This document shows, piece after piece, positions 17,481 to 64,000 of a DNA stretch of 64,000 nt. The translations under genes and the position numbers were made by a program. The notes beneath the pieces are model-generated. The model was given only the letters and a program-made list of their open reading frames with translations. It was not told the origin of the DNA and made no database searches. Origin of the DNA: an uncultured Sphingomonadaceae bacterium (GTDB lineage Bacteria; Pseudomonadota; Alphaproteobacteria; Sphingomonadales; Sphingomonadaceae); assembly GCA_947488625.1 (NCBI GenBank), contig CANKZR010000004.1, positions 35,142-99,141 of the forward strand, in the 5' to 3' direction. Every line of letters starts with the position of its first letter. The first letter of the stretch is position 1.

Positions 17481-19787
<2,307 letters not shown>

Positions 19788-44252: not shown

Positions 44253-44285
44253 AGCATACGCTTGAGGAGCCATGGCTTGCAAATC

Positions 44286-47004: not shown

Positions 47005-47025
47005 ATGCCGCGTGCCAATTTGTGC

Positions 47026-47056
47026 TTGAACCTGTAGTGACTACAGAGATTATATT
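47026..47056 (+). promoter_or_regulatory. MerR-type promoter/operator with 19-bp spacer
   Basis: -35 TTGAAC (47026-31), 19 bp containing the palindrome CTGTAG-TGA-CTACAG, -10 TATATT (47051-56). Confidence 0.88.
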
Positions 47057-47063
47057 GAACTCC

Positions 47064-47426: not shown

Positions 47427-47437
47427 GAGTTAGACGG

Positions 47438-47785: not shown

Positions 47786-48003
47786 TGCAATTACAATCCA
47801 CGCTCACGTGCCCTCAGTGCGGACACCAGGAAATCGAAACCATGCCGACCGACGCATGCTGGTTTTTCTACGACTGCAAGGGCTGCGGAATGAAGCTGAA
47901 ACCCAATGCAGGCGACTGCTGTGTCTTCTGTTCGTTCGGCACAGTGCCTTGCCCGCCAATTCAAGAAGCGCGTGCCAATGGCACAAGCGTTGAATGCTGC
48001 TGA
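47785..48003 (+). CDS. Small Cys-rich GDCCVxC-domain protein
   Basis: CPQC, CWFFYDCKGC, GDCCVFCSFGTVPCPP and terminal CC; translationally coupled to merP. Confidence 0.85.
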   Translation: MQLQSTLTCPQCGHQEIETMPTDACWFFYDCKGCGMKLKPNAGDCCVFCSFGTVPCPPIQEARANGTSVECC

Positions 48004-48013
48004 GGTCAATGAC

Positions 48014-49372
48014 ATGAACGAACGCAGCTTCGATCTTATCGTACTCGGCGTCGGAATGGCGGCGGTGAATGCCGCGAACAAATGCGCCGCTGCGGGTTGG
48101 TCGGTCGCAGTGGTTGACGAACTTCCCTATGGCGGCACCTGCGCGCTGCGCGGCTGCGACCCCAAAAAGATGCTGCGGCGAGGCGCCGAAATCATCGATG
48201 GAGCTCGGCTGATGCAGGGCAAGGGTATTGAACCGAATGATATCGCGATCAACTGGGCTGATCTCATCGCCTTCGCTCAGAGCTTTACCGACAGAATGCC
48301 CGAGAAGATCGAGGGCGGTCTCGACAGTAACGGCGTCACCACGCTTCACGGGACGGCGCAATTTGCTGGCGAAGACACGATCGAAATCGAGGGCCAAGGG
48401 CGGTTTCAAGCCAACAATATCCTGATCGCGACTGGCGCCAAGCCCCGCCCTGTGGATATTCCAGGTGCCGAACACCTCACCAACAGCACCGAATTCATGC
48501 GGATGGACGCCCTCCCGAAGCGTATATTGTTTATCGGCGGCGGGTTCGTCTCGTTCGAGTTCGGTCATATCGCTGCACGAGCTGGCAGCGAGGTGCAGAT
48601 CATTAATCGCGGTGACAGGCCATTGAAGGCCTTTGACACAAACCTCGTCGAAAAGCTTTTACCACGAGGTGAGGAAATTGGGGTGGGATTGCGTCGGCGC
48701 ACATCGCTGAAATCTATCGCCACTGACGGCGTCGAATTCATCGTCACTGTCGAAAAGAATGGTGAAACCGAAGACTTGCACGCCGATCTGGTCGTGCACG
48801 GTGCGGGACGCGTGCCTGAAATCGATCGCCTGAACCTGAGCGCTGCCAATATCGAGGCGGGAGACAAGGGAATAGCAGTCAATGAATATTTGCAGAGCCT
48901 GTCCAACCCGAAAATCTACGCCGCAGGCGATGCGGCCAACACGCACGGGCCTCCGTTGACACCTGTCGCAGTATTCGAAGGCAAGGTCGCTGCCTCCAAC
49001 ATGCTCAAGGGCAATCAGACCAAGCCAGACTATCGCGGCGTGCCCAGCGCTGTGTTTACAATTCCGGAATTAACCCGCGTCGGAATGCTCGAAGAAGAAG
49101 CAGAGGAAGCCGGTCACAATATCCGCGTCGCGGAAAACGACACAGGCAATTGGTATTCCAATCTTCGCGTTGGCGAGACCTGTGCTGCCACCAGAATTAT
49201 CATCGATAAAGACACCGACACTATCCTCGGCGCGCATCTGTTTGGACCCGAATACGGGGAGATTATCAATTTCTTCGGCCTTGCAATGAGGCTGTCACTG
49301 ACAACTCGAGATCTGAAGAAATTGGTCGCGGCCTACCCCTCGGTTGGCTCGGATTTAGGGTCCATGCTGTAA
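48014..49372 (+). CDS. Class I pyridine nucleotide-disulfide oxidoreductase, not a canonical MerA
   Basis: Redox motif GGTCALRGCDPKK and GGGFVSFE; no NmerA domain and no C-terminal vicinal Cys pair (ends YPSVGSDLGSML). Confidence 0.85.
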   Translation: MNERSFDLIVLGVGMAAVNAANKCAAAGWSVAVVDELPYGGTCALRGCDPKKMLRRGAEIIDGARLMQGKGIEPNDIAINWADLIAFAQSFTDRMPEKIEGGLDSNGVTTLHGTAQFAGEDTIEIEGQGRFQANNILIATGAKPRPVDIPGAEHLTNSTEFMRMDALPKRILFIGGGFVSFEFGHIAARAGSEVQIINRGDRPLKAFDTNLVEKLLPRGEEIGVGLRRRTSLKSIATDGVEFIVTVEKNGETEDLHADLVVHGAGRVPEIDRLNLSAANIEAGDKGIAVNEYLQSLSNPKIYAAGDAANTHGPPLTPVAVFEGKVAASNMLKGNQTKPDYRGVPSAVFTIPELTRVGMLEEEAEEAGHNIRVAENDTGNWYSNLRVGETCAATRIIIDKDTDTILGAHLFGPEYGEIINFFGLAMRLSLTTRDLKKLVAAYPSVGSDLGSML

Positions 49373-49526
49373 TCTGCTCGATACCAGCTGTTGATCGTCG
49401 GCTTCTGGTGAAGACGTTAGCTGCTTGCATGGTTTGGGGCGTAGAATATTCACTTTCCATCGAGCTTGATGGTCAGCAATTGACGGCCTCCGAGAGGTTC
49501 CGGCCTTAGAGCTTCTGTTTCGCCAA

Positions 49527-50279
49527 TCATCCCGCATCGCGCCATCGGATGATATCGGAAAACCCGATCAGACCATCGAACAGCGCCGAAACGATCAAAG
49601 ATTGCTTACAGTGAACCTGATAGCGTTCTCGCGCCATTTTGAGATGCTGGATTACTGTTTCGGTCGCAATCCCAAGGATCATGGCCGTCTCGGCTGAGGT
49701 CTTGCCTCGTGCGACCCACAGAAGACATTCGCGCTGCCGGTCGCTCAGGACAGGCACGGATTCGTCGGATTGAGCTGAGCCCAGTCCCAGTGCACAGCTC
49801 AGTGCGAGCGTACCGACCATTTCTGCGACCGCAAAGCGACTGTGTGGCAGGTCTCGGTCGGGGCAGACCGCAAATGTACACGTTCCGCGCGCAAGACCGG
49901 GCAAATGTCGCGGGACAGTGTAGCCATCACCGATTCCGCATTCGCGCCCCACCGCCAGCATCTGGCGATCACCGCGAGTTAGCGGGATCAGTTCGCCCAG
50001 TGAGCCCCACGCAAAGCCGACAAACGACTTGTCGCAGGCTCGCCGGACCGGATCCTGTCCGGCCAGATCGAACCCGACATACACCTTGGCCCATTCGTCG
50101 GGATAATCATGCAGGAGCAAACCGGGAGCCTCGCACGATCCTGAACGCAGCTCGAGGCTCAAGGCGAAGTGGTCGAAGCCAAGCCGCCGACAGACTTGCT
50201 TCAGCGCCTGGTCGAGTTCCTCGTCTGACTGGACATTGACCAGTTCGGATGCGAATTCCTCCGCGAAATAAGCCTGCAT
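49527..50279 (-). CDS. luxR: AHL-binding LuxR-family regulator
   Basis: YPDEW..Y...DPV, FAW and G autoinducer-binding residues; HTH LSDRQRECLLWVARGKTS. Confidence 0.93.
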   Translation of the reverse strand: MQAYFAEEFASELVNVQSDEELDQALKQVCRRLGFDHFALSLELRSGSCEAPGLLLHDYPDEWAKVYVGFDLAGQDPVRRACDKSFVGFAWGSLGELIPLTRGDRQMLAVGRECGIGDGYTVPRHLPGLARGTCTFAVCPDRDLPHSRFAVAEMVGTLALSCALGLGSAQSDESVPVLSDRQRECLLWVARGKTSAETAMILGIATETVIQHLKMARERYQVHCKQSLIVSALFDGLIGFSDIIRWRDAG

Positions 50280-50559
50280 AGCCCTGCCCGTCCGATCGGC
50301 AGGGCGCTATCCAACACGCCGCCGTCCGATCGCCTGCTGGTGGCCAGTCCCGGCGCTTCCATTGCACCGGTTCCGGCTGCTGCAGTTGCGCCCCCGAAGG
50401 TCGGGTTCCTTGCGGCGTCGGTCGCGAGATGCAGATCGCGCCACAAGGAGAGGCATAACGACTTCAGCGAATTTGGGATGACTTTGCAAGGACGTAGGCC
50501 TGATATTCGTCTGGCCTGTGACTGGTAGGCCAGCCGGGCGAATACGATTTCGACGCCAG

Positions 50560-51174
50560 TTAATTCGCACAACGCTTGCCCCGTGAGGGATTGAGCAATT
50601 CACGATAACCCTCAGCCGCCATGCGATGCGCTTCGGCGACGAGGCGCTGTGTCTGCCGGCGATGCGATGATGTTTTCCAGTCGATCGCGCGGCCCGCTTT
50701 GAGGCCTGGATAGATCAGTGCCTTGGCGAGCTCTTGCAATGTCACCTGCTTGGGTGAAGCGTCTTCGAGCAGATCGAGAATGGCAAGCAGGATGCTCAGC
50801 CTGTAGCGTTTGTAAGCAGATGGCTTGAGGAGCCGATGGTGCGCCTTTGTCGCCGCGCCCTCTTTCGACCGGTGGAATTCACTGAGAGCTGCTACGCGGA
50901 CACCAAGATCGGCATCGTCGGGGACGACATAGCCATCAATGCCGGGAGATGGCTCGCGCGCCAACAGGACGCGGTGACGATTTCGCGTATCGGAAACCAC
51001 CATGTGCTGTCCGGCATCGTTCTCGTGCTGGGCAATCACCTTGCACTCAGCCAATGTGCCTCTGATTCCGGCAAGGTCCCGGGCGCCGCCAGCCACGATA
51101 ACGACGCTTGCGTTCGCATCGCTTCTCCAGATCGCCGGGCTGTCTGTGGCCGAAACACTCGGATCGAACGGGAA
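50560..51174 (-). CDS. fseA: DUF2285 (RovC/FseA-type) DNA-binding domain, +1 frame of an FseA-like fusion
   Basis: AILD...LQELAKALIYP...WKTSSHRRQTQRL.AEAHRM..EGYRELL; frame is open up to the slippery site and has no RBS-linked ATG of its own. Confidence 0.75.
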   Translation of the reverse strand, partial: FPFDPSVSATDSPAIWRSDANASVVIVAGGARDLAGIRGTLAECKVIAQHENDAGQHMVVSDTRNRHRVLLAREPSPGIDGYVVPDDADLGVRVAALSEFHRSKEGAATKAHHRLLKPSAYKRYRLSILLAILDLLEDASPKQVTLQELAKALIYPGLKAGRAIDWKTSSHRRQTQRLVAEAHRMAAEGYRELLNPSRGKRCAN

Positions 51175-51355
51175 ATTCTAGGCCCCATGACCGAGCTATT
51201 CGCCGCGCGGCGGATGGTTTCTTGTCGCCGGTATCGCGCGAATGAAGTCTGGCATATTGATCCTTGTACGCCGGATTGCGTCGCAGGAATTCCTGCGCGA
51301 AGTCCGAAAAATCGAAGTCGCCTGTACCAGTATCGTCGGCAGATGATTGAGCCAT
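51047..51355 (-). CDS. DUF6499 domain (Msi172-like), zero frame of an FseA-like fusion
   Basis: Strong RBS AAGGAGG; FAQEFLRRNPAY..QY motif followed by SWGLEFP. Confidence 0.75.
   Translation of the reverse strand: MAQSSADDTGTGDFDFSDFAQEFLRRNPAYKDQYARLHSRDTGDKKPSAARRIARSWGLEFPVRSECFGHRQPGDLEKRCERKRRYRGWRRPGPCRNQRHIG
51170..51190 (-). other. Putative +1 programmed ribosomal frameshift site
   Basis: TCA.TGG.GGC.CTA.GAA.TTT.CCC matches TGG.GGV.NTN.NNN.TTT.CSY; UUU-to-UUC slippage lands in the DUF2285 frame. Confidence 0.8.
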
Positions 51356-51747
51356 AGAGCACCTCCTTTCGGCTCGGATGGCTAGCGCCGCGGGATAACA
51401 GCGGACATTCCAAGCATGTGGAGGGGCCCTCCCCAGTACTAGGCATGTGAGTGCCCTATATCGGCGCGACCGCAACGCCGGGCGGGTATCATGATGCCTC
51501 GAAAATGGAGACACTTGCCCCTTGCAAGCTGCTTTTGTCTTGGGCACATTCGACCCGCGCGGTTTGAAACTCTGGCGCCGACCGCGTGGATATTTCCGCC
51601 AGCCATCATGCACGCCGGTCCGCTCAAGGCCCGGCGGCCCAACCGGTCAAGGGACGTCGATACCTCCTGAACGGCGGCACAGTACTGGATCCCGCACTCG
51701 GCTTGCGATGAGGAGCCGCCGATTGCGGTTGCCTCCCAGTCCATTGC

Positions 51748-52329
51748 ATGAACCAGCTTTCTGCCGACACCCGGCGAGACGATCATCAACTATCGAGCTC
51801 CGCGCTGCGAACCCCGGCACCGCAAGCTCGGGTAAGCTCGCCCTGCCCGCTCGACGCCCTGTACCGCCGAGAGAGCGCATGCCTGCTTGCCTATTTTTCG
51901 CGCTGCGTCGGTCGTGAGCGAGCCCGCGATCTGGTTCAGGACGTTTTCGTGCGCGCTGCGACCAGCCCGCAACTGACAGATCTCCGGAACCCGGCAGGAT
52001 TTCTATTCCGGATCGCTCGCAACCTGCTGGTCGATGAAGCCCGCAGACAGAAATGCCGCATCAGGACGGTGCCACTGGTCGAAAACACCGATGCGCCGTG
52101 CTGCGCCGAGCAGGAGGACAGAATTGAGGTGGAAGAGACGACCGGGCGCTTCGAGACCGCGTTGGCGCAGTTGCCCGAGAAAACGGCGGGCATCTTCAGG
52201 ATGAACCGCTTCGAGAAAAAATCCTACCGTCAGATCCACCAAGAGTTGGGCATCGCGCTGCCGACAGTCGATTATCACATGATGAAAGCGCTCGCGCATC
52301 TTCGCACGGTTTTCGCTGATCGCGCCTGA
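51748..52329 (+). CDS. FecI-like ECF sigma factor
   Basis: Region 2 DLVQDVFVR...FLFRIARNLLVD; region 4 LPEK...F.M.R...SY..I...LGI...TV.YH. Confidence 0.85.
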   Translation: MNQLSADTRRDDHQLSSSALRTPAPQARVSSPCPLDALYRRESACLLAYFSRCVGRERARDLVQDVFVRAATSPQLTDLRNPAGFLFRIARNLLVDEARRQKCRIRTVPLVENTDAPCCAEQEDRIEVEETTGRFETALAQLPEKTAGIFRMNRFEKKSYRQIHQELGIALPTVDYHMMKALAHLRTVFADRA

Positions 52330-52452
52330 TTGAGCGCGACAGATTTAACGCACAAAGATCAGGCTTTGCAAATTTAATTTCATTTGAAACTAAGGTGCTC
52401 GTGAATGCCTGCGTCATTCCCTGTGGCGACATAATCGCAACAGATCAGGGAG

Positions 52453-54816
52453 ATGACAATGCAATCGACAATCCGGACAATTACGGCGCTCTTGGCAGGA
52501 ACCGCCCTGGCAGGCTTTTCTTCGCCGCTTCTCGCCCAATCCGCAGGGCCGCCCCAGAGTGAAGTCGATGAAGTGCAGGACGATCATTCGGATGTCGCCA
52601 GCGGGGACAACGCGATCGTCGTTACAGGAACGCGGATCCGGGGCGCGCGGATCATTGGCGATACAATTTCGCTCGACCGCGAGGCGATCGTCGAAGCGGG
52701 CCAGATCGATCTGGGCGAAGCGATCCGGACACTTCCGCAGAACTTTTCCGGCGGGCAAAATCCAGGTATTGGATCAGGCGCAGGGTTCGCCAACAGCAAC
52801 GTAAATTCGGCCTCAAGCGCAAATCTGCGCGGTCTCGGACCAGATGCGACGCTGACACTCCTCAACGGCCACCGGCTACCCTATGATTCCGCTTTTGCAG
52901 GGGTCGACATTTCATCCATCCCGCTCGCGGCGGTCGACCGGATTGAAATCGTTCCGGACGGAGCCTCGGCCCTCTACGGTTCAGATGCGGTCGCGGGCGT
53001 GGTCAATGTAATCCTTCGCCGCGATTTTGAAGGCATCACGACATCCGCGCAGATCGGCGCAAGCACGGATGGCGGCAATTTCCGCCAGCAGGCCGATATA
53101 GTGGCGGGCACGCGCTGGAGCGGGGGCGGGTTCTTCGTCGCTTACGATTTTGCAAACAATTCGGCGATCGAGGCTGGCCAGCGCTCCTATGCCAGCTCGC
53201 TTGATCCGGAGACCACGCTCTTCCCCTCGCAGCAACGCCATGCCGTTACGCTTTCGGCACATCACGAACTCGCGCCCGGCCTCGAGGCCAGTATCGACGC
53301 GCTTTATTCAAGCCGAAGCTCAACGCTCGTGGCCGCATCATCGGCATTTCGATCGGAAGCCGATCCGGAGGTGGAATCCTATACGCTCGCCCCGTCACTG
53401 AAATTCGACGTCGCAGGAGACTGGCAGGCAACAGTGCTGGGAGTGTTCGGCCGCGACCGGACGCACTACCGGACCGCCTTCGCGCTGCAGGACGGGTCGT
53501 CGAGCGTGACCGAGGGGTGTTTTTGCAATGAGGTTTTCTCACTCGAAGCGGGTCTGGAGGGTCCGCTGTTCACGCTTCCCGGAGGCGAGGCGCGTCTGGC
53601 TGTCGGCGCGGGTCTGCGAAACAACACGCTCGATTTCAGCCGCAGCGAAGCGGGAAATTTACTGATCGCTTTCGACAAGACGCAGCGCGCGCGTTTCGCC
53701 TATGGCGAACTCTTCCTGCCGGTCGTTTCGCCGCGTAATGCAATCGATGGAGTCGCCGAGCTGACCCTTTCGGCGGCGGCGCGTCACGAAGATTATCCAG
53801 GCCTCGATCAACAGACGACGCCGCGCTTTGGTTTGAGCTACGCACCGGTCGAAGGGCTGACGTTGCGCGGCAGCTGGGCGCGCTCGTTCAAGGCTCCGAC
53901 CCTCTTTCAGCGTTTCATACCCTATCAGACCATTCTGCTGCCAGCGGCCGTATTCGGCGCCGGAGCGGGGTCCGACACGGTGTTTTTCACAAGCGGCGGC
54001 AATCCGGACGTGACATCGGAACGCGCGCGCAGCTGGACCGCCGGTGTGGAGCTGCAGCCGGTCGCCATTCCCGAACTGACGATTTCGGCCACTTGGTACG
54101 ACATTCGCTATCAAGACCGGGTGGTGCGACCGATTGCGGGCTCGATTGCGGCTGCTTTCCGCGACCCGGGGTTTGCAAACCTGATCGATTTCTCTCCCGA
54201 TCCGACAACTTTATCCGAGCTCATTACTGGATCGCTATTCGGTCTCGAAAACTTCTCGGGCTCCCCCTACGATCCCGCCAATGTTGCCGCCTTTGTCGAC
54301 AACCGGAACAGAAACGTTGCGGTTTGGGCCATCGAAGGCGTGGATGCGAGGATCGCCTGGAACCAGAACCTGGGCGACGAACAGTCACTTTCCTTCGATC
54401 TCTCGGGCAGCTTCCTCGATAGCCAGCAACAGGTCACGCCCGATCTGTCCGAGGTTCAGCTAGCCGGAACGGTTTTCAATCCACCACGCTACCGTGCGCG
54501 GGGCACGGCGCGCTATCAGTCTGGCGGGTTCGCGGCCAATATCGCCGCCAACTATATCGGCGCGCTGCGCGACCGCCGCTTCGAGGAAGAGCGCCGCCTT
54601 TCGCCCAGCGCCACGGTCGATCTCGGCCTGAGCTATGAAATTGTTCGCGGTGAGAGCCGCGAACCAGGCCTCGAAATCTCGCTCACGATCCAGAACCTGT
54701 TCGACGAAGAACCCGAAACGCTCGGCCAGACCGGGCCGACGGACACACCCTATGATTCAACCAATTATTCGCCGATCGGGCGGTTCGTCACCTTCGGCAT
54801 CCGGAGGCACTGGTGA
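52453..54816 (+). CDS. TonB-dependent receptor (lasso-cluster associated)
   Basis: Signal peptide, IVVTGTR TonB box, NLRGLG..TLTLLNG plug, YGSDAVAGVVN, C-terminal W; no STN domain. Confidence 0.93.
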   Translation: MTMQSTIRTITALLAGTALAGFSSPLLAQSAGPPQSEVDEVQDDHSDVASGDNAIVVTGTRIRGARIIGDTISLDREAIVEAGQIDLGEAIRTLPQNFSGGQNPGIGSGAGFANSNVNSASSANLRGLGPDATLTLLNGHRLPYDSAFAGVDISSIPLAAVDRIEIVPDGASALYGSDAVAGVVNVILRRDFEGITTSAQIGASTDGGNFRQQADIVAGTRWSGGGFFVAYDFANNSAIEAGQRSYASSLDPETTLFPSQQRHAVTLSAHHELAPGLEASIDALYSSRSSTLVAASSAFRSEADPEVESYTLAPSLKFDVAGDWQATVLGVFGRDRTHYRTAFALQDGSSSVTEGCFCNEVFSLEAGLEGPLFTLPGGEARLAVGAGLRNNTLDFSRSEAGNLLIAFDKTQRARFAYGELFLPVVSPRNAIDGVAELTLSAAARHEDYPGLDQQTTPRFGLSYAPVEGLTLRGSWARSFKAPTLFQRFIPYQTILLPAAVFGAGAGSDTVFFTSGGNPDVTSERARSWTAGVELQPVAIPELTISATWYDIRYQDRVVRPIAGSIAAAFRDPGFANLIDFSPDPTTLSELITGSLFGLENFSGSPYDPANVAAFVDNRNRNVAVWAIEGVDARIAWNQNLGDEQSLSFDLSGSFLDSQQQVTPDLSEVQLAGTVFNPPRYRARGTARYQSGGFAANIAANYIGALRDRRFEEERRLSPSATVDLGLSYEIVRGESREPGLEISLTIQNLFDEEPETLGQTGPTDTPYDSTNYSPIGRFVTFGIRRHW

Positions 54817-56963
54817 CAATCATACTGCTTGCCGCCGCTCTTTCGCAGACGATCGTGCCGACGACATATATCGATCCTGGCGACCAGGACCCGTGTGCTT
54901 TGTTCGATGAAACGCCGAGCAGCGCGCAAGCGCAAAGATCGGCATTCACGCTCGACGACCAGGTCCGGATTGCGGACATTGGCAGGGCAGCTCCGACCGG
55001 CGCGCCTTCGGCGTTCGAAATCTCGCCCGATGGCGAACGGATCGCTTTTGTTGTGAAGCGCGCAAACCCGCAAGCCAATGCGTATTGCCTGAGGCTCGTG
55101 GTGACCACGATGGATGGAAGCGAGACTGAAACCGAAATTGACACGGGCGGTGAGTTTATCCGGGATGACTTTCCGCTCCGCGATTTTCCGGCGATCATGG
55201 GTGGCTGGGACAGGCCCAATGCGCCCCGCTGGTCTCCTGATGGCGCACGCATCGGCTATCTCAAGCGCATCGATGGTTCGACGCAGGTATGGATTGCCGA
55301 TCCAGCGGGCGAAGCGCCCCCGCATCGGGCAACGGCCATGCCCGACGATGTCGACCGCTTTGCCTGGACGGCTGACGGCGACGGGCTCATCGTGCAAACA
55401 CGTCCGGGTATTCGCCAGCAGGCGGAAGCAATTGCGCAAGAGGCTGCGCGAGGCTTCCTGTTTGACGATCGCTTCTCCCCGCAATTTGCCGACTGGCCGA
55501 TCCCGACTGGTGAGATTGTCCCGGAATATGCCTTCGTGGCCCTCGGCGATGGCAGCGTCCGCCCGGCGACAGACGGCGAGGTCGAGCTTCTTGTTCCCCA
55601 CCGGCCTGGCACTCTGCCTGCGCAAGCACGCGAAAATGCCGCAGGGCCGGATGGATATGCGGCGTGGCTTGAGCCCAAGCATCCCGACCGGCTGATAAGT
55701 CGCTCGCGCATCGCAGTGATGCAGCCCGGCGGCAGCCGGATCTCGTGCAATGCGGAGGCGTGCGAAGGGGTCCGCCAACTGTGGTGGGCAGCCGAAGGCC
55801 GGACCTTGCTCGCTCTTCAGGGAACGGGCGGGGCGAACAGCCAGATGGCGATCCTGCGCTGGGATATGGAGGAGGACCAGCCCCGCTCGCTGCTGACAAC
55901 CGATGACGTTCTGATCGGGTGCAGCCCATTTGGAAACGAACTGGTCTGCGCGCGCGAAGGGGCTGCGAGGCCGAGGCGCATCGTCGCAATCGATATCCGA
56001 ACGGGCGCCGAGCGGGTGGTCTACGACCCCAATCCGGACCTTGCGAACGCAGTTTTCGGAACCGTGCAGCGGCTCCGGTTTCGCAATGCATATGGTTCGG
56101 AAAGCTTCGCAGATCTTGTCTTGCCGCCCGATCACATACCGGGGCAGCAACACCCATTGGTGGTCGTGCAATACACCAGCGACGGGTTCCTGCGCGGCGG
56201 GACCGGCGACGAAGTGCCGATCCACCCGCTGGCGAACCGCGGCTTTGCTGTGCTCAGTTTTGATCGCCCGACCTTCTCGGCTGCGGCGCTCGCCGCAACG
56301 AGTGAAGAGGAGCTTGTCCGCGCCAACCGCGCCGACTGGATCGACCGCCGCAGAGTGCAGTCGTCCCTGGAGATCGCGCTCGAGCTCGCCATCGAGACAG
56401 GCGCGGTCGATGCAGGGCGGATGGGTATTAGCGGTTTCAGCGACGGCGGATCGACAGTGCAGTGGGCTCTTATCAACTCGGACCTGTTCCAAGTGGCCTC
56501 CATGGGATCGTGCTGCGAAGATATGTATTCCTATCCGACGGCAGCCGGGCCGCGCTTCACGGATTTCGTTCGCGCGATGGGCTACCGCCATTTCGAGCCC
56601 GGGACCGAAGAATTCTGGAAACCCATGTCGCTCATCCTCAATGTCGACACGGTAGATGTGCCGATCCTCATCCAGACCGGCGACAGCGAATATGAAGGCG
56701 GCCTCGATGTAATAGAAACCTATTCGCATCGCGGGCGGGCCATCGAACTTTACGTGCTGGAGAACGAAACGCATATGAAATGGCAGCCCGCGCACCGGCA
56801 GGCGATCTACGAGCGATCGACCGAATGGTTCGAGTTCTGGCTGATGGATCGTATCAACTGCGATCCGGCACGAGCGCAGCAATACCGGCGGTGGAGCGCG
56901 ATGGAAGGCGCCCCCTCCCCCGAAGAGTTGCAATGTTTCGAGGGTCAATCCTCAATGCCATGA
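54813..56963 (+). CDS. Lasso peptide isopeptidase (AtxE2-like, S9 prolyl oligopeptidase fold)
   Basis: PRWSPDG propeller motifs, GFLRGGTGDEVPI, nucleophile GFSDG, His motif ETHMKWQPAHR; GTGA overlap with the receptor gene. Confidence 0.88.
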   Translation: MTIILLAAALSQTIVPTTYIDPGDQDPCALFDETPSSAQAQRSAFTLDDQVRIADIGRAAPTGAPSAFEISPDGERIAFVVKRANPQANAYCLRLVVTTMDGSETETEIDTGGEFIRDDFPLRDFPAIMGGWDRPNAPRWSPDGARIGYLKRIDGSTQVWIADPAGEAPPHRATAMPDDVDRFAWTADGDGLIVQTRPGIRQQAEAIAQEAARGFLFDDRFSPQFADWPIPTGEIVPEYAFVALGDGSVRPATDGEVELLVPHRPGTLPAQARENAAGPDGYAAWLEPKHPDRLISRSRIAVMQPGGSRISCNAEACEGVRQLWWAAEGRTLLALQGTGGANSQMAILRWDMEEDQPRSLLTTDDVLIGCSPFGNELVCAREGAARPRRIVAIDIRTGAERVVYDPNPDLANAVFGTVQRLRFRNAYGSESFADLVLPPDHIPGQQHPLVVVQYTSDGFLRGGTGDEVPIHPLANRGFAVLSFDRPTFSAAALAATSEEELVRANRADWIDRRRVQSSLEIALELAIETGAVDAGRMGISGFSDGGSTVQWALINSDLFQVASMGSCCEDMYSYPTAAGPRFTDFVRAMGYRHFEPGTEEFWKPMSLILNVDTVDVPILIQTGDSEYEGGLDVIETYSHRGRAIELYVLENETHMKWQPAHRQAIYERSTEWFEFWLMDRINCDPARAQQYRRWSAMEGAPSPEELQCFEGQSSMP

Positions 56964-58673
56964 CCGGGCCCAGTTCTCGGCCTCGGCTAGATCGAGAAGC
57001 CGGTAGATGGTCGATCCATCAAGCGACGTGTCGAGTTCAAATGCGGCTTCGACACTTGCGCGGTCGAGCAATCCATTCCGTGCGATCAGGCCATCGAGCA
57101 ACAATTCGCGAAGGGCGCTTCGATGGTGGTGGAACGCGAGGCGGATGAAGCTGTCTGGTCCTGATTTGGAGGTGCGTGCCAACAGGCTCTGCGGAAGGTC
57201 AGCGGCAAAAGCATCGCGCGCGAGCGCACGGTTGCGACCGCCTTCGACCCACAGCCATGTGGGGATACCCAGGCACAATTCGAGCAGAGGCTGGCTCATG
57301 AGTGGTGAGAAGCGTTCAGGCCCGACGCCAAGCCCGTGAACATGGTGCTGGGCGCGCATGATCAGGGCAAGATGATCGTGTTTACCTCCATGCTGGCCGA
57401 CATCGATATCGAGCCAGGGTGTTACGGGGTCCAACGCCTCGTCCAATGCGAGATGATCGGCAAGCAGGCGCCGGTCGCAAGGCCATTCGCCGCCTGGGCG
57501 GCGCACCAAACGCTTTAAGGTCGCCTTGACCATGGCAGGTAAATCGCAGCCGGTAACCCGGCACATGTCGAGCAGGGTTGCGACCGCACCGCGTCCGGGT
57601 CCCTCGACACGCAAGCGGTCGACGACCGGCGCCGCTGAATGAAGAAAGCAGAACAGATTGTCGCCAGCATTGCCATCGAAGACGATCCGCGCTCCGAGGT
57701 CACCTGCGGCATCGGCGAGCAACGCGTCGATGGTAGACAGAAACGAACTGCGGCTCGGGCGCGGAAGACCGACCGAGGCGCTGACCCGGGGATCGAAACG
57801 CATAGGATCGTAAATCCGCTCGGCATATTCTGCACCCAGGTGCTTAGCCAGAAGGCGAGCATAGTCCCGCTCGTCGCCGCTTCTGTCCGCTGTCGCGAGC
57901 GTGACGCAGGAAATCGGTTCTTGCGCCCGCGTAAGCGCGGCGCAGACGAGGGAAGAGTCGACGCCGCCCGACACCGCCACTGCCACGGGTCCAAGCTCGT
58001 CGGCCCATGCGCCCATGACACGGATCGCCACTTTGCGAAGTTGCGATCTCGCTTCACCATAGGAGGGCGATTGTCTGCCCGGCAGGAACTGCTGCGCGCG
58101 CCAGACTGGGAATTCTTCGGGATCGCAAGCCGCCGGATAAGTCAAGGCACCTGGCCGTAGCTCGTGGACACCGGTCAGACAGGTTTGTCTCCTGCGCAAT
58201 TCGGCACGCGTCAAAAAACTGCCCAGAGAACCCCATGATATACTCATTCTCTTTGCGCAGGCCTGCTCGAGAAGTTTCGGATCAGAGGTGAGCAGCACGT
58301 GGGTCGTCGTCACCAGTCGGTAGATCGGGACCAGTCCGGAAGGATCCGGCATCACGGCCAAATCGCAGCGATCACGATCGGGTATGATCGCCAGGTAGGC
58401 ACCCCAGAAGTTTGCGGCGAGGTCGGCGGCGAGCGTTTCAGCGGAGTGCGTGCCCATCTCCGGCAGCTGATAAACACGCTGCGACGTGGCTCCGGCGAAG
58501 AGGGTGCCGATCACACATCCAGCAGAGCCAAGATCGGCAACATTCGTGCCTTTCGCTATCCAGAGCCGCGGGAGATCGCCGCACAGATCCTGCAGGCTCG
58601 GCATCATCTGCAGCCGAGGAGACGCCCCCGATTTCCGGCGCGGTACAGCGAGAGCAAAGCGCTGTGGCGTCAT
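56952..58673 (-). CDS. Lasso peptide cyclase (C protein, asparagine synthetase-like)
   Basis: VSGGVDSS ATP-pyrophosphatase loop, FDGNAGDNLF, SPLMSQPLLELCL.IP, R.LAR.AF...LP; ATG 58673 overlaps the B stop. Confidence 0.9.
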   Translation of the reverse strand: MTPQRFALAVPRRKSGASPRLQMMPSLQDLCGDLPRLWIAKGTNVADLGSAGCVIGTLFAGATSQRVYQLPEMGTHSAETLAADLAANFWGAYLAIIPDRDRCDLAVMPDPSGLVPIYRLVTTTHVLLTSDPKLLEQACAKRMSISWGSLGSFLTRAELRRRQTCLTGVHELRPGALTYPAACDPEEFPVWRAQQFLPGRQSPSYGEARSQLRKVAIRVMGAWADELGPVAVAVSGGVDSSLVCAALTRAQEPISCVTLATADRSGDERDYARLLAKHLGAEYAERIYDPMRFDPRVSASVGLPRPSRSSFLSTIDALLADAAGDLGARIVFDGNAGDNLFCFLHSAAPVVDRLRVEGPGRGAVATLLDMCRVTGCDLPAMVKATLKRLVRRPGGEWPCDRRLLADHLALDEALDPVTPWLDIDVGQHGGKHDHLALIMRAQHHVHGLGVGPERFSPLMSQPLLELCLGIPTWLWVEGGRNRALARDAFAADLPQSLLARTSKSGPDSFIRLAFHHHRSALRELLLDGLIARNGLLDRASVEAAFELDTSLDGSTIYRLLDLAEAENWARSWH

Positions 58674-59275
58674 ACGACCAATATCGGCGTATACCGCAGC
58701 ACTTCCTCGGCAGTATCGTTGAGCACGGCATCGCCTTGCTGGACCCAGCAATGGGCGCCGAACGGATCGCTTCGGACGCCGATAACGATATGGGTGTGGA
58801 TATCGCGCCGGGCTAGCCGCAGCGCTAGCGCAATCGAGCGCGGCAAGCAGCGATCTGCTGCACTGCGCAGGAGCCGGGCGTGTTCAAAGGCGCGAAGCTC
58901 CATAGCCCGCTCGGTGCCACTTGTATCACTGGTCACCAGCGGGCCTTTCAGGCTTTTCAGCTCCAGCAGGACTTCGCGGAAAGAACGCGCTGCAATTCGG
59001 CGCTCGACTCGGCGCTGGGTCCAGATTGCCGCAGAAACGCGGGCAAGCCGAAAGGGCCCTTCATGGATCTCCGGCGAAACAATACGCGGTCTGGTCCATT
59101 CAGGTGGGCGCGGGAAAGCGGTTGGTTGATACCAGTCTTGGCCCTCAACCTGGGCGCGAAAAGCCTCCTCGCGAGGCGCTGGCAGCTGAAAGTAGCGATC
59201 TTGCGCAATGTCGAGAAAAACGAACCTGCCGCTGCATTCGGCCCAGGCGATATCGCTGTTGCTGAACTCGGTCAC
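58670..59275 (-). CDS. Lasso peptide B protein (leader peptidase, transglutaminase-like)
   Basis: FVFLDIAQDRY N-terminus; catalytic RCLPRS, FGAHCWV and LND. Confidence 0.9.
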   Translation of the reverse strand: MTEFSNSDIAWAECSGRFVFLDIAQDRYFQLPAPREEAFRAQVEGQDWYQPTAFPRPPEWTRPRIVSPEIHEGPFRLARVSAAIWTQRRVERRIAARSFREVLLELKSLKGPLVTSDTSGTERAMELRAFEHARLLRSAADRCLPRSIALALRLARRDIHTHIVIGVRSDPFGAHCWVQQGDAVLNDTAEEVLRYTPILVV

Positions 59276-59295
59276 GGCGGTAGGATCGCAGCGAA

Positions 59296-59323
59296 GGGGC
59301 GCGGCCCTGCAAGGGCGCGCCCC
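59296..59323 (-). terminator. GC-rich hairpin between lasso precursor and B gene
   Basis: GGGGCGC-G-GCCCT-GCA-AGGGC-GCGCCCC; no U-tract. Confidence 0.6.
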
Positions 59324-59334
59324 CCCCGCGAGGC

Positions 59335-59472
59335 TCAGTCTTCGGCGAGGCCGGTCGCGTAGGACAACCGGCCGCTGCTCACATCGATATCGAACAGGGC
59401 GTTGCCCTTGGTCTCCACCGAGGCTTGGCCGAGATCGATAACCTCATCCTGGATATGCTCAAAATCCTTCAT
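59335..59472 (-). CDS. Lasso peptide precursor (45 aa): leader MKDFEHIQDEVIDLGQASVETK + core GNALFDIDVSSGRLSYATGLAED
   Basis: Hand-translated (below the ORF-track cutoff); RBS AGGAG; IDLG.AS.ET.G leader motif with Thr at -2, Gly1 and Asp8. Confidence 0.93.
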   Translation of the reverse strand: MKDFEHIQDEVIDLGQASVETKGNALFDIDVSSGRLSYATGLAED

Positions 59473-59545
59473 GATTCACTCCTGTGGTTGGTATCGCGAC
59501 TCAATTGTCGCGAGAAGAGAGTGATCGCGTGAGGAAATTCAGGCC

Positions 59546-59568
59546 AACTTATAATGAAATTATAAATT
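59546..59568. promoter_or_regulatory. AT-rich inverted repeat upstream of the lasso precursor
   Basis: AACTTATAAT-GAA-ATTATAAATT (9/10 arm match) 74 bp upstream of the ATG. Confidence 0.55.
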
Positions 59569-59801
59569 CCGCTTGGGTGGAAGATGCGACCGGGAGATGG
59601 AAACACCCGTTGGCGAGTGTATCGATACTTTTAGCGTTTCGCCTGGACATCTGTATCGGCGCCCGGTCGCCAGGAACTTGCATTCCCGCACCAGTATTAC
59701 GCTGAAACACGACTGGTGCAAAGGGACCGTAAAGTTACGTAGGCCAGCAATTCACGCGAAACGATAGATGTTTAGCGTGACAAAGCCGGGTACTCGATCC
59801 T

Positions 59802-60038
59802 CTACTGGTCTGGTTTGGCGGCGGCTCGCCTGCGCAATCGCGCGAAGTCCCTGTCGCTCGCAATGAACCGCTCCAGCATTGGCGAGACGAGAAGAGCGGG
59901 ATCCGGAGCGTTCTCCGGTGTCCCGCCATTTATCACGCGGGCATATTCGGCCAGCTTGCGATGCAGCCGGACCGGTATCTCGACGGTCAGCTTGACTGTT
60001 TTTTGATCCTCGATGTCGGATAGCTTCAGGCGGGTCAT
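59802..60038 (-). CDS. DUF2274 domain protein (last gene of trb operons)
   Basis: LKL..IED.K.VKLTVE....L...L..YA...PMLERFIASDRDF; ATGA overlap with trbI. Confidence 0.85.
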   Translation of the reverse strand: MTRLKLSDIEDQKTVKLTVEIPVRLHRKLAEYARVINGGTPENAPDPALLVSPMLERFIASDRDFARLRRRAAAKPDQ

Positions 60039-61210
60039 GAGCGGCTGTCCAGGATAATATCGCGCGTTACCAGAACGCGCACCGGGTAACCGGGGCGGAT
60101 CGTCAATGTCGGACGGATGGCAAGCTCGCGAGAGACAACCTGCTCGCCCACCTGGTTGACGCTGTCCTGACCTCCCCGGCGCACGGCACGCAGCAAATCG
60201 CTGTCGCCTCCCGGACCAAGCTCGCCGCCGATACCTAGTAGAGTCGAGACCAGCGCTGCCTTGAACACACCGCCCCAATGATAGTCGACGCCGTCTTCCA
60301 GTCCGGCATAGCCTGCCGGATCGACCGCAGGCTGGCGCTCGAGAACCAGCGAGCGCCCGTCGGGCAGGATCAGGCGATTCCATGCCAGCAGCACGCGGCG
60401 CTCGCCGAAGCCGACATCGGACGCATAATCGCCGATAAGGCGCGCGCCCTGGGGAATAAGCAGAATCCGCCCGGTGAGGCTGTCATAGACATTCTGCGTG
60501 ACTTGCGCGGTCACAAGGCCGGGCTGGTCTGACCGGACGCCGGTGATAAGCGCCGCAGGAATGACCGAGCCTGCCTGAAGCACTGCATCCGTCGGCGCCG
60601 CGGCGAGCTGCTGCAATGCAGCGGTGCGCCGATCGGCCGGGCGGTCGAGGAAAGCGGGCGCAGATCTCACGGCCTCGGTCGCGGTCACAGGCTGCGATGC
60701 GTTCGAACTGGCTGTTGGCGGTGCATCGGTGCTTGAAACCGCCGTAGCGCCCGCAAAGAACAGCGCGCTGGCACGGGCCGCTTCGCGCTCCTGCTCGATG
60801 CGCTGACGCGCTGCCTCTGCGGGACTTATTCCCTGCGTCTGCGGCGGCGCGGGCTGCGATCCGACTGGTGGAAGCGCAGCGACAGCTCCGCGATCCTGGG
60901 CATTGAGGATGGGCTCGCCGAGATCGCCGGGAAGCGACGGGCCGAGACGCGGAACCTGCGAATAGTCGCTCGGGCCCGACGCAAGACCGTCGGCGACCGC
61001 CACTGTTTCGGTTCCAAAAAGCTCATCCGGCCCTGCCTCCGAGACCGGTTGCAGGGCGTAAATCATCGCGCCGCCGACCAGCGTCAGAGCGGCGGCGCTG
61101 GCGATGCCGATGGCTTTGCGCGAGAGGCGAACGACGCGCGGCCCCTCACCGCGCAAGCGAACGATGGATTCAGCATCAGCAGGCCGGTCCGGTTCGGATT
61201 CACTGTTCAT
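60035..61210 (-). CDS. trbI: Conjugal transfer protein TrbI (VirB10)
   Basis: LQAGSVIPAALITG, IPQGARLIG, GYAGLEDGVDYHW and PTLTIRPG motifs. Confidence 0.95.
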   Translation of the reverse strand: MNSESEPDRPADAESIVRLRGEGPRVVRLSRKAIGIASAAALTLVGGAMIYALQPVSEAGPDELFGTETVAVADGLASGPSDYSQVPRLGPSLPGDLGEPILNAQDRGAVAALPPVGSQPAPPQTQGISPAEAARQRIEQEREAARASALFFAGATAVSSTDAPPTASSNASQPVTATEAVRSAPAFLDRPADRRTAALQQLAAAPTDAVLQAGSVIPAALITGVRSDQPGLVTAQVTQNVYDSLTGRILLIPQGARLIGDYASDVGFGERRVLLAWNRLILPDGRSLVLERQPAVDPAGYAGLEDGVDYHWGGVFKAALVSTLLGIGGELGPGGDSDLLRAVRRGGQDSVNQVGEQVVSRELAIRPTLTIRPGYPVRVLVTRDIILDSRS

Positions 61211-62205
61211 GACCGGCCCCACGCCCGATTGGTGATTTTGACCCGAACCTGCCTGCGCCTGGCACCAAGCCGCAGTTCGGCCTTCTCGAACAGGCGGTCC
61301 ACAATCAGATAGCGGCCCGAAACGCGGTAGTTGACCAGCTCCGCCTGCCCATCCTCGCCGACGACGAAAAACGGCGGCATTTCACCTTGCGCAATATCGG
61401 GCGGAAATTCGATCAGGGTGCGCTGCCCGTCATCGAATATCCGCACCGGCCGCCAGTCGGGCCTATCGCCCGAAATCCGGTAGTCGAAGTTGAGATTCTC
61501 GACCGCGAAACCGCTTGCAACGGGCGCGGCGCGCGCTGCGTCCTCTTCGGCCCGGCGAAGAGCGATCAGTTCATCTGCCGGATAGCTCCAGCTGACCGAC
61601 GCCATATAGACACTGGGATTGGCCCGCAGTTCGACATGATAGGTTCGCCGATCGGTGTTGATCACGAGATTGGTCGTAATATCGGGCCGGGTGGGTTTCA
61701 CGAGGATGTGGACGCGCGCCGCCTCGCCCGTCCCGCTCATCGTATCGCCGATCATCCAGCGCACCGTATCGCCAGCGGCAACCGGTCCGGGACCGACGAG
61801 CTTTTCGCCCTCCTGCAATGCGATATCGGTGACCTGGCCCGGCTTGGTATAGACCTGAAACAGAGCGCCCTCGCTATAGGGATAGCGCTGGATCGCATTG
61901 TCGAATCCGACGTCGTCGGGCTCGACCCGTGCGGCATCGTTTGCCGCTCCCACTTGGCTCTGGGGATCAGGGGCAGGTCCAGAGCCAGGGGAGCGGCGCG
62001 CGGCAGTGGGGGAGGCCTGCCGCGAACTGAAAAGGAGAGAAATACCGATGTTGTCTTGCAGGACCGGGAAAGCCCCTGCGAGCGCGCCCAATGCTTCGAT
62101 TGACGCCGCCGCCTGCGGGGCAGGTGTCGCAGCGACAGGCGCGGCAAGAGCGAGCGAGACAAGGCCGAAAAAGCCGATCGTGGGAAGTGCATGCGAGCGG
62201 GACAT
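61207..62205 (-). CDS. trbG: Conjugal transfer protein TrbG (VirB9)
   Basis: VAAGDTVRW, TNLVINTDRRTYH, MASVSW.YP and LVNYRV motifs. Confidence 0.93.
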   Translation of the reverse strand: MSRSHALPTIGFFGLVSLALAAPVAATPAPQAAASIEALGALAGAFPVLQDNIGISLLFSSRQASPTAARRSPGSGPAPDPQSQVGAANDAARVEPDDVGFDNAIQRYPYSEGALFQVYTKPGQVTDIALQEGEKLVGPGPVAAGDTVRWMIGDTMSGTGEAARVHILVKPTRPDITTNLVINTDRRTYHVELRANPSVYMASVSWSYPADELIALRRAEEDAARAAPVASGFAVENLNFDYRISGDRPDWRPVRIFDDGQRTLIEFPPDIAQGEMPPFFVVGEDGQAELVNYRVSGRYLIVDRLFEKAELRLGARRRQVRVKITNRAWGRS

Positions 62206-62885
62206 CAGCCGAGCTCCTTTGACCAGTTGATGGAAGTGACGAAAATTCCGAGCGGGTTTCTGCGAAGCGCATCCGCGTTGGTTGGTGGCTGGACGGCGAT
62301 GCCCAAAATCGCGGTCCAGCGGCTCGTCTCGGCAAGCGAGCCGTCACGGTAGCGGCGCTCGATCCAGGCCACGCGGAAGCTCCTCGGCGAGGCGCGGATG
62401 ACGCTTGTGACATCGACCGCAACCTGTTCGCGGCCGATCGCGGCGAACGGATCGCTGCGCCGAGCATAGTCGTTGAGCGCCAGCGCGCCTTTGTCGCTGG
62501 CAAAGTCATAGGCTGACAGCCAATTCTCGCGCACCACGACCGGATCGTCAGGAATGGCGCGCACGTTTTCGATAAACCGGGCAAGATGGAACGCGATCTG
62601 GGGATCGCTTGGGTCGAATGCGACATTGGCAGGCGCAACGCTGCGCGCTTCGCCGAGCTTGTTCACCTCGACCACCCAGGGAACGATGGTTCCCCGCGCA
62701 TTCTGCCAGACGAGACTGCCAGTCAGGATTCCCGATAATCCAAGCGCACCGAAAAACGCATAGCGCCAGCTTCTCGCCTGAATGCGCGCCGAACCGATGC
62801 GATCGTCCCAGACCTGGGCCGCGCGCTGGTAAGGTGTCTCGGCTTGCGGTGTCTTACCGTATCGGATCGAAGGGCGTTTAAACAT
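62205..62885 (-). CDS. trbF: Conjugal transfer protein TrbF
   Basis: ETPYQRAAQVWDDRIGSAR, DPVVVRENW and RNPLGIFV..INWS motifs. Confidence 0.95.
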   Translation of the reverse strand: MFKRPSIRYGKTPQAETPYQRAAQVWDDRIGSARIQARSWRYAFFGALGLSGILTGSLVWQNARGTIVPWVVEVNKLGEARSVAPANVAFDPSDPQIAFHLARFIENVRAIPDDPVVVRENWLSAYDFASDKGALALNDYARRSDPFAAIGREQVAVDVTSVIRASPRSFRVAWIERRYRDGSLAETSRWTAILGIAVQPPTNADALRRNPLGIFVTSINWSKELG

Positions 62886-62891
62886 GAGGCG

Positions 62892-64000
62892 TCAGTCCTT
62901 TTCCTGAGTGTCGATGGAAGCGCCTGCGCCGTGCCCGTCGCCAGAGCGAACGGTGTGCGCGGCAAGCGACGCTGAATGTCCAAGAGACTGTCGCTGCTTC
63001 ATGGATTTCGCCCAGCTCGGCGGGCCGTTTTCGGACGCTGGCGAAGACGGCGGCGAGGAGGCGACCCGGCCACCCATATTGCTGGCTGCTGCACGCGCAC
63101 CTTCGCGAAAATTTCGTTTGGCGCTATCCGCCGCCTTACGCAGAGGTGAGAGGGCAGCACCGCCTGCGGCGCGTCCGACACTCGCCATGCCGCCTGCAAC
63201 CGCACCGCCGCCGCTCTTGCCTGCCGAACCTGTTGCGTAGGCCATGGTGGCACCTCCAGCAGCGCGCGATGCGCCACTGGCGACCGAGGATGCTGCGCTG
63301 GCTACAGCGCCGCCCGCAAGCTTGGCACCGGCAATGCCGCCGACGGCTGCCCCGCCGGCCAGCACAGCGGTGCCTGCCGCGGCCCCTGCGCCGAGCTGGG
63401 GGCCGCCTGCGACGATGCCGTTGGCGATACCGGGACCGAATATGCCGAGCCCGAGCAGGGTAAGACTGGCGAGCACGATCGCCAGCGCGTCTTCGATGGT
63501 CGGGTCGCCCGGGATGGCGCTGGTAAACTCAGCGAAAAGCGTCGAGCCGATCCCGATAATCACGGCGAGCACGAGTACTTTGATCCCTGAGGAGACGACA
63601 TTGCCCAGCACGCGCTCGGCCATGAAAGCGGTCTTGCCGAACAGGCCGAAAGGGATGAGCACGAAGCCTGCAAGCGTCGTCAGCTTGAATTCGATGAGCG
63701 TCACGAAGAGCTGGATCGACAGAATGAAGAAGGCGATGACCACCAAGGCCCAGGCCACCAGCAGGATGATGATCTGCAGAAAGTTCTCGAAGAAGCTTAT
63801 ATAGCCGAGCAGATCGGCCATCGACGCAAGCAAAGGCGCGGCAGCATCGATACCGACCTGCGCGACCCGGCCCGGCTGCAGCAGATCGGCTGCGCCAACG
63901 CCAGAACCGCTGGCCTTGAGGCCAAGTCCGGCAAAGCTTTGAAATATGATATTGGCCAGCGCGCTCCAATTGCCGATGATATAGGCGAAGATTCCGACGA
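62892..64000 (-). CDS. trbL: Conjugal transfer protein TrbL (VirB6), 5' part beyond the window
   Basis: IQLFVTLIEFKLTTLAGFVL.PF...KT.F.AERVLG, GPGIANG..GGPQLGAG and an A/G-rich tail; frame open to the window edge. Confidence 0.93.
   Translation of the reverse strand, partial: VGIFAYIIGNWSALANIIFQSFAGLGLKASGSGVGAADLLQPGRVAQVGIDAAAPLLASMADLLGYISFFENFLQIIILLVAWALVVIAFFILSIQLFVTLIEFKLTTLAGFVLIPFGLFGKTAFMAERVLGNVVSSGIKVLVLAVIIGIGSTLFAEFTSAIPGDPTIEDALAIVLASLTLLGLGIFGPGIANGIVAGGPQLGAGAAAGTAVLAGGAAVGGIAGAKLAGGAVASAASSVASGASRAAGGATMAYATGSAGKSGGGAVAGGMASVGRAAGGAALSPLRKAADSAKRNFREGARAAASNMGGRVASSPPSSPASENGPPSWAKSMKQRQSLGHSASLAAHTVRSGDGHGAGASIDTQEKD

Follow-up and report, generated by a model that had tools for sequence, protein, structure and literature searches.

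Background

The described lasso peptides closest to the system reported here are sphingopyxin II, benenodin-1, subterisin and astexin-2 and -3. Our subject is a gene cluster in a 64,000-nucleotide stretch of DNA (the window) from an uncultured Sphingomonadaceae bacterium (assembly GCA_947488625.1, contig CANKZR010000004.1), in which a short open reading frame (ORF), gene A, encodes a lasso peptide precursor. Sphingopyxin II was reportedly described by Hegemann et al. in Biopolymers in 2013, benenodin-1 (Asticcacaulis benevestitus) by Zong et al. in 2017, subterisin (Sphingomonas subterranea) by Kuroha et al. in 2017, and astexin-2 and -3 (Asticcacaulis excentricus), together with their isopeptidase AtxE2, by Maksimov and Link in 2013 and by Chekan et al. 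in 2016 (PDB 5txc/5txe). The families NF033522 and PF24178 are named after benenodin-1 and subterisin, respectively.

The window cluster is like each of these systems in certain respects. With benenodin-1 it shares membership of the NF033522 family, an eight-residue Gly1-Asp8 ring, a trimmed tail and an isopeptidase in the cluster, ring and trimming being predictions in the case of the window peptide. Beyond G1 and D8, however, the benenodin-1 core, GVGFGRPDSILTQEQAKPM, is unrelated to the window core, and the thermal conformer switching of benenodin-1 is a property of its own that is not inferable for the window peptide. Subterisin belongs to the same PF24178 family, and its cluster likewise carries no ABC transporter (PMC11006600). 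The astexin-2/-3 cluster has the same combination of A-B-C genes, isopeptidase and TonB-dependent receptor, with no exporter, whereas the astexins themselves have nine-residue Gly1-Asp9 rings and unrelated cores (PMC12427821).

Results and discussion

Gene A encodes a class II lasso precursor

An initial annotation, made from the sequence alone, had proposed that a minus-strand ORF of 45 codons, preceded by an AGGAG ribosome-binding site and lying directly upstream of genes B and C, encodes a lasso precursor. Translation, position and placement ahead of B and C on the same strand all agree with our analysis (Table 1), as does the assigned identity. The product scores 50.6 bits against Pfam PF24178 (Subterisin; curated cut-off 27 bits), residues 1-44 aligning to positions 1-42 of a model that is 42 positions long, and 45.2 bits against NCBIfam NF033522 (benenodin family lasso peptide; curated cut-off 33 bits). 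A six-frame scan of the whole window with a profile built from homologues gives gene A as the sole match (E = 4e-32), the runner-up being at E = 0.45. Between the window and one of its relatives (L002), the core codons show four synonymous and no non-synonymous changes, indicating that the core is under purifying selection. The family hidden Markov model scores, the single profile match and the synonymous-only core changes together argue that this ORF is not a chance occurrence, and we conclude that it is a genuine lasso precursor, of class II and of the benenodin/subterisin/sphingopyxin-II family, the class II assignment following from a core that begins with Gly and contains no Cys.

The precursor has 18 close homologues, and when 1.84 billion representative proteins were searched with a profile, 92 matched at E<=1e-3, short precursors accounting for 73 of them. 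The leader is recognisable in 62 of these, and 57 of the 62 carry Asp at core position 8. The Shine-Dalgarno sequence is similarly constant, its AGGA being invariant in 12/12 aligned loci. A match to IF-1, obtained on searching PDB sequences of at least 20 residues with the precursor, was rejected as chance (E = 0.66).

Across 20 close homologues, leader residues I12, D13, L14, G15, A17, S18, E20 and T21 are invariant, as is G23; this places an invariant Gly at -8 and an invariant Thr at -2, the latter having been pointed out in the initial annotation. Within the core, GNALFDIDVSSGRLSYATGLAED, G1, D8 and G12 are invariant in the same set. Counting position by position over 57 distinct 23-residue cores of the family, position 1 is G in 57/57 and position 8 is D in 55/57, with one further E; the residues at 7 and 9 vary or are hydrophobic. 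Position 12 is G in 48 of the cores, position 14 is L in 41, position 16 is Y or F in 39 and position 19 is G in 54; positions 22 and 23 are mostly D or E, so that the family tail follows the pattern G-[LI]-x-[DE]-[DE]. The window core is strongly acidic (four D/E against one R), and Asp8 is its sole acidic residue within positions 7-9. Because Gly1 and Asp8 are near-invariant and no other acidic residue is available at 7-9, the Gly1-Asp8 ring of the 23-residue class II core, as first suggested, is well supported as the sole canonical option that this sequence offers. We recomputed the monoisotopic masses of the core as 2370.134 Da for the linear and 2352.123 Da for the cyclised form, in agreement with the hand-calculated 2370.1 and 2352.1 Da.

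Benenodin-1 has an eight-residue ring and was isolated with five residues lost from its tail (PMC13352647). Given this precedent and the shared acidic tail, C-terminal trimming of the window peptide is plausible. As for the plugs, where Arg13, Leu14 and Tyr16 had all been candidates, the pattern of conservation is suggestive of Leu14 and Tyr16 rather than Arg13. Threading, plugs, trimming and physiological role are all features that we infer for this peptide.

The family profile also matches giant repeat proteins of 2,000-7,800 residues with a period of about 111 residues (P0056, P0057, P0063 and others). Their repeated motif, DGLFDIDVSTGVVSYN, is closely similar to the stretch NALFDIDVSSGRLSYA of the lasso core (core residues 2-17, window positions 59353..59403), a likeness that probably arose by convergence, the motif being a hairpin in cadherin-like repeats.

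Relationship to sphingopyxin II and other known members

The core GEALIDQDVGGGRQQFLTGIAQD, which we take to be that of sphingopyxin II, is encoded in CP000356.1, presumably the chromosome of Sphingopyxis alaskensis RB2256, and also at two of our loci (L015, L016). A 9-mer of this core was absent from the literature searched, and the sequence table of PMC12427821 includes neither the sphingopyxins nor subterisin. The two precursors are of similar length (44/45 residues), belong to the same Pfam family and share the leader block VIDLG[QK]ASVETKG. Their cores are identical at 12/23 positions, among them G1, D6, D8, V9, G12, R13, T18, G19, A21 and D23, and differ at the remaining 11, including the putative plug region (LSY in the window, QQF in sphingopyxin II). 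The layout of the CP000356.1 locus is also the same, with trbI-DUF2274, A-B-C, a convergent E, receptor and sigma genes. In contrast to the window, the S. alaskensis cluster (L021) combines its sigma factor with a FecR anti-sigma gene and an 856-residue receptor that bears an STN domain (13683..18127); its B protein is 216-219 residues long, and its B and C proteins are 36-39% and 38% identical, respectively, to those of the window. The resemblance to sphingopyxin II, suggested in the initial annotation, is thus borne out by core, leader and synteny. On comparison of these sequences, the window peptide is a homologue of sphingopyxin II and a different compound.

It had further been suggested that the peptide may be a new member of this subfamily. 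That it is an uncharacterised homologue stands, since no characterisation of its core was found in the literature searched; its novelty was overstated, since NCBI annotates the family and identical cores occur in public genomes of several genera. Public data already include the exact 45-residue protein, which comes from an NCBI assembly (P0019). The identical core, behind slightly different leaders, occurs in Pacificimonas sp. (WP_460316968.1), in a metagenome-assembled genome (MAG) of Alteraurantiacibacter and in a marine MAG labelled 'Sphingopyxis sp.'. It is found too in unclassified Erythrobacter, represented by a cluster on 646 contigs, and in many marine metagenomes, while Qipengyuania citrea has core variants ending in AEG or AEE. 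These identical- and variant-core proteins carry the NCBI name 'benenodin family lasso peptide'. A literature search combining lasso peptides with names of Erythrobacteraceae gave genome-mining mentions only. As far as can be told, then, the peptide is uncharacterised but catalogued, and the family to which it belongs is known and annotated.

Maturation, uptake and degradation genes

Genes B and C lie directly downstream of A on the same strand, and their catalytic motifs are intact. In B, C143 and H175 are invariant and D187 near-invariant among 36 homologues. The listed TTG start of C lies too far upstream, and we have moved it to an ATG at 58673 that overlaps the stop codon of B as ATGA; annotated loci of the S. 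alaskensis type show the same ATGA overlap of B and C. The C protein is 38-88% identical to those of syntenic loci.

On the opposite strand, gene E clears by a wide margin the 400-bit cut-off of NF033523, an equivalog model for Atxe2 family lasso peptide isopeptidases. Its alignment with AtxE2 (5txc) spans residues 44-699, with the GxSDG serine and the acidic (D) and His motifs in register. Its start overlaps the stop of the receptor gene by 4 nt (GTGA), and E (+) and C (-) are convergent, their 3' ends overlapping by 12 nt (56952..56963). Overlaps of 4 nt, as ATGA or GTGA, are seen at B/C, at receptor/E and at trbI/DUF2274. No ABC transporter is present between 51748 and 59800, and no McjD-type immunity gene in the cluster. 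No FecR anti-sigma ORF was found in the 123-nt gap between the sigma and receptor genes, and the receptor gave no match to the STN domain; a FecI/FecR-type pair with an STN-bearing receptor is an accessory trait of some isopeptidase-associated clusters and does not define them. Judged on gene content, the window cluster is a complete and intact astexin-type architecture consisting of maker, receptor and isopeptidase. A hypothesis that links isopeptidase, receptor and release of a cargo in lasso peptide systems has been summarised previously (PMC11006600, PMC9266682).

Regulatory elements of the cluster

Genes A and B are separated by a spacer of 59 nt that contains a GC-rich hairpin. A stem of 10-17 bp directly follows the stop codon of A in 13/13 loci, and the fact that it does so despite unrelated sequences supports a function for the hairpin, which is likely to be a partial terminator or a stabiliser that sets the stoichiometry of A to BC. 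A consensus terminator scan found no terminator at this hairpin, which has no T-run. An A-B inverted repeat has reportedly been described for astexin-1 and the caulosegnins, and the window hairpin agrees with this. Marine metatranscriptome libraries contain contigs with 90-95% identity to the window that extend without a break from a point just 5' of A, across the hairpin and into B. They fit transcription with partial read-through in relatives, though carry-over of DNA is possible.

Upstream of A are two further repeats (Table 1), which, along with the ribosome-binding site, are conserved from Erythrobacteraceae to S. alaskensis. Of the inverted repeat, GCG.C...GAGTCGC is kept in 12/12 aligned loci, including CP000356.1, and we infer that it acts as an RNA hairpin or as an operator. 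Of the AT-rich palindrome, all 12 loci keep TTATA and TTATAA, and it is a candidate -10 element or operator of the A-B-C unit. We considered and rejected a Fur box here: the half-sites resemble TGATAAT/ATTATCA, but their spacing is 3 nt, not 1. A permissive Rfam scan of 51500..60100 gave no match, including at the leader and A-B hairpins.

The 10-mer TAATTTCATT occurs twice in the 64-kb window against an expectation of 0.02, once within the AT-rich palindrome and once, upstream of the receptor gene, within the conserved block AAATTTAATTTCATTTGAAACTAAGGTG. Most related loci of the Erythrobacteraceae type have counterparts of the two copies that differ at no more than one position. Lying ahead of A and of the receptor gene alike, this sequence is a candidate shared operator or promoter element, which suggests that the production and uptake arms are co-regulated.

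The module is cargo of an integrative conjugative element

An integrative conjugative element (ICE) begins about 43 kb into the window (43002..64000), and the lasso module is cargo of this Trb-type element. Scanning species-representative genomes with the leader motif yielded 19 loci, for which we examined flanks of 8 kb. The order A-B-C / E / receptor / sigma is found in 17/19 of these, the contigs of the remaining two ending inside C, and again in CP000356.1. The longer arrangement, in which trbL-F-G-I-DUF2274 is followed by A-B-C and then by convergent E, receptor and sigma, is present in 16/19 loci from at least 10 genera, and likewise in CP000356.1. Linkage to such an element is not obligate: at one locus (L003) a module 86-98% identical to that of the window has housekeeping genes as its neighbours, and its 8-kb flanks contain no trb genes. 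The window itself contains the chromosomal genes groEL, polA, lnt and rpoN, and a megablast search of a plasmid collection gave no match to it; from these two observations, the locus is chromosomal, on an ICE, and not on a plasmid. A tRNA scan of the window found no tRNA that could be the integration site.

An identical 45-residue precursor, with core GAVGFYIDASGGQLANSPGLLDE, is present in Tsuneonella, Aurantiacibacter, Erythrobacter, Citromicrobium and Novosphingobium (L009-L013, match at 8001..8126 in each), and this precursor is found on at least 1000 contigs. The occurrence of one identical precursor across five genera indicates recent horizontal spread of the module. Among the top-ranked matches of a literature search, none combined lasso peptides with integrative conjugative elements. 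To our knowledge, no ICE context has been described for the astexins.

Two other features of the element bear on its mobility. Its overlapping FseA-like ORFs look, by analogy, like an ICE excision activator that needs programmed +1 frameshifting; the FseA-type excision activator of ICEMlSymR7A is reportedly made in this way. Genes for a LuxI synthase and a LuxR/TraR regulator sit between the integrase and FseA-like genes, and their presence suggests quorum-sensing control of element transfer.

Table 1. Positions of the lasso module, its putative control elements and associated genes of the conjugative element in the window
Feature	Position	Strand	Basis or remark
Gene A, 45-aa lasso precursor MKDFEHIQDEVIDLGQASVETKGNALFDIDVSSGRLSYATGLAED, ATG start	59335..59472	-	Translation; PF24178 and NF033522 matches
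Gene A parts: 22-aa leader MKDFEHIQDEVIDLGQASVETK, 23-aa core GNALFDIDVSSGRLSYATGLAED
Shine-Dalgarno AGGAG of gene A	59479..59483	-	6 nt 5' of ATG (59472..59470)
Gene B, 201-aa fused leader-binding and Cys-protease protein	58670..59275	-	PF13471 (Transglut_core3) 70.5 bits; NF033537 (lasso peptide biosynthesis B2) 73.4 bits
Gene C, 573-aa Asn-synthetase-like lasso cyclase, SGGVDS PP-loop	56952..58673	-	PF00733 90.4 bits
Gene E, AtxE2-family lasso peptide isopeptidase, GTG start	54813..56963	+	NF033523 764 bits; PDB 5txc E=4.6e-125
TonB-dependent outer-membrane receptor, 787 aa, Plug and barrel	52453..54816	+	PF00593, PF07715
Extracytoplasmic function (ECF)-type sigma-70 factor	51748..52329	+	PF04542, PF08281; TIGR02937 63.5 bits (cut-off 42.9)
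A-B intergenic GC-rich hairpin	59286..59331	-	Core stem 59324..59296, 13 bp
Inverted repeat TCGCGAC-AATTGA-GTCGCGA, perfect 7 bp	59494..59513	-	Just upstream of gene A ribosome-binding site, inside presumed 5' leader
AT-rich palindrome TTATAAT-TTC-ATTATAA, contains TATAAT	59549..59565	-	Upstream of gene A
10-mer TAATTTCATT, copy 1	59553..59562	-	Within AT-rich palindrome
10-mer TAATTTCATT, copy 2	52375..52384	+	Within conserved block AAATTTAATTTCATTTGAAACTAAGGTG upstream of receptor gene
Tyrosine integrase	43002..44252
LuxI-type autoinducer synthase	45751..46416	-
LuxR/TraR-type regulator	49527..50279	-
FseA-like ORF pair, 50-nt overlap	50560..51613	-	Upstream ORF PF20109 (DUF6499); downstream ORF PF10074 (DUF2285), +1 frame
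DUF2274	59802..60038
trbI, trbG, trbF, trbL	60035..63833

A proposed mechanism and its alternatives

We propose the following account. The fused B protein would hold the conserved leader VIDLGQASVETK, with its Gly at -8 and Thr at -2, via an N-terminal beta-sheet domain, and would cut after Lys-1 using a Cys143/His175/Asp187 site. The ATP-dependent C protein would then adenylate the side chain of Asp8 and join it to the amine of Gly1 around a pre-folded tail, giving an eight-residue macrolactam threaded by a tail of 15 residues (2352.12 Da for the full-length cyclised product). Leu14 and Tyr16 are the likeliest residues to flank the ring, and the acidic C-terminal residues would probably be trimmed in part. 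The GC hairpin after A may allow the A message to exceed the BC message. In place of an ABC exporter, the cluster carries the convergent sigma-receptor-isopeptidase unit: the threaded peptide would be taken back up by the TonB-dependent receptor, and its Gly1-Asp8 bond would be opened again by the AtxE2-type serine isopeptidase. This would amount to a cycle of production, import and linearisation as proposed for the astexins, in which the peptide is not an antibiotic but a carrier for scavenging or signalling. Taken as a whole, from class II lasso precursor through biosynthesis, control and uptake/degradation to the ICE context, we consider this account very probable.

A number of results weigh against it, several of them concerning the leader-binding part of B. 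No match to the Pfam PqqD/RiPP recognition element (RRE) was found in residues 1-80 of B. An AlphaFold2 model built with 36 homologues (predicted local distance difference test score 89.7) is confident and has only three strands and one helix, in what looks like a reduced leader-recognition domain, followed by a Pro-rich linker and then the protease domain. A Foldseek search of the PDB with this model returned nothing significant (best E = 0.87), the weak matches being to papain-like/transglutaminase folds, to the TbiB1 RRE (39 columns, E = 2.3) and to the CteB RRE; a profile search of PDB sequences with the B alignment likewise gave nothing meaningful. The N-terminal domain of B is about 19-22 residues shorter, in the region of residues 44-76, than that of the S. 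alaskensis protein. No other form of B is as frequent in the family: more than 100 homologues measure about 200-205 residues. Leader binding by a reduced RRE in B is plausible. With regard to control, a consensus scan found no sigma-70 promoter, the folding energy of the A-B hairpin with its flanks is ordinary for 61% GC (z = -1.5), and, the window module being without FecR and STN, its signalling logic may differ from that of the S. alaskensis version. Finally, neither the window core nor its 9-mer is mentioned in the literature searched, and for no isopeptidase-linked lasso peptide has a physiological role been proven.

These points must be set beside three other ways of reading the cluster. 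The peptide could be a narrow-spectrum, microcin-like antimicrobial that acts on related Sphingomonadales via their TonB-dependent receptors, with isopeptidase and receptor providing self-immunity or detoxification. Many proteobacterial lasso peptides are indeed receptor-dependent antimicrobials (PMC13352647, PMC11006600), and toxin-plus-immunity cargo would favour spread of the conjugative element that carries the module, with which the identical precursors in five genera would accord. Against such a role stand the lack of an ABC exporter or McjD-type immunity gene and the strong acidity of the core. We know of no antimicrobial activity for the isopeptidase-bearing relatives (astexins, sphingopyxins and benenodin-1), and we regard this reading as unlikely. 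Less likely still is a cluster carried along silently or in decay, whose gene A is intact but which yields no mature peptide in the native host, for example owing to a reduced leader domain in B or an inactive promoter. The shortened B N-terminus without an RRE match and the failure of the consensus scan to find a promoter would fit, as would the low yields obtained from native A-B regions of relatives (PMC7549694). Yet the short B form is common and its catalytic residues are invariant, the core is under purifying selection, elements of the promoter region are conserved across genera, and contigs from RNA libraries of relatives cover A and B.

There is also the matter of whether the precursor is processed in another, non-canonical way, with the leader cut elsewhere than at Lys22|Gly23, or with the ring closed on Asp6 or on Glu22/Asp23. 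Position 6 is D or E in 34/57 cores, and the title of a recent report on metanodin points to unusual ring structures. Many relatives, however, have F, Y, G or Q at position 6, whereas D8 is near-invariant, and Thr-2 and Gly+1 are invariant. Lasso rings comprise 7-9 residues, and a ring of six would be too small to thread. Moreover, benenodin-1, of the same NCBIfam family, has an eight-residue ring (PMC13352647). Non-canonical processing thus strikes us as highly improbable, and we retain the Gly1-Asp8 lasso peptide that is produced, imported and linearised as the preferred reading.

Conclusions

As a compound, the window peptide would be one more congener of a well-studied lasso family, of use mainly as a scaffold or for comparison of plug and loop rules with sphingopyxin II and benenodin-1. 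Of wider concern is the constant position of the module beside the trb operon of conjugative elements in many Sphingomonadales, the sphingopyxin II producer among them. Together with a core that is widespread in marine Erythrobacteraceae and present in marine RNA libraries, this could help to explain what lasso peptides with a receptor and isopeptidase of their own are for. One speculative possibility, to which we give rather little credence at present, is that the module may be conserved, fixed-position cargo of a family of quorum-sensing-controlled Trb-type ICEs in Sphingomonadales, its arms co-regulated via a shared AT-rich operator, TAATTTCATT. The peptide would then serve the element; it could, for instance, be a shareable molecule for scavenging or signalling whose uptake and opening are restricted to carriers. 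If this is true, it would provide a testable handle on the purpose of isopeptidase-linked lasso peptides.

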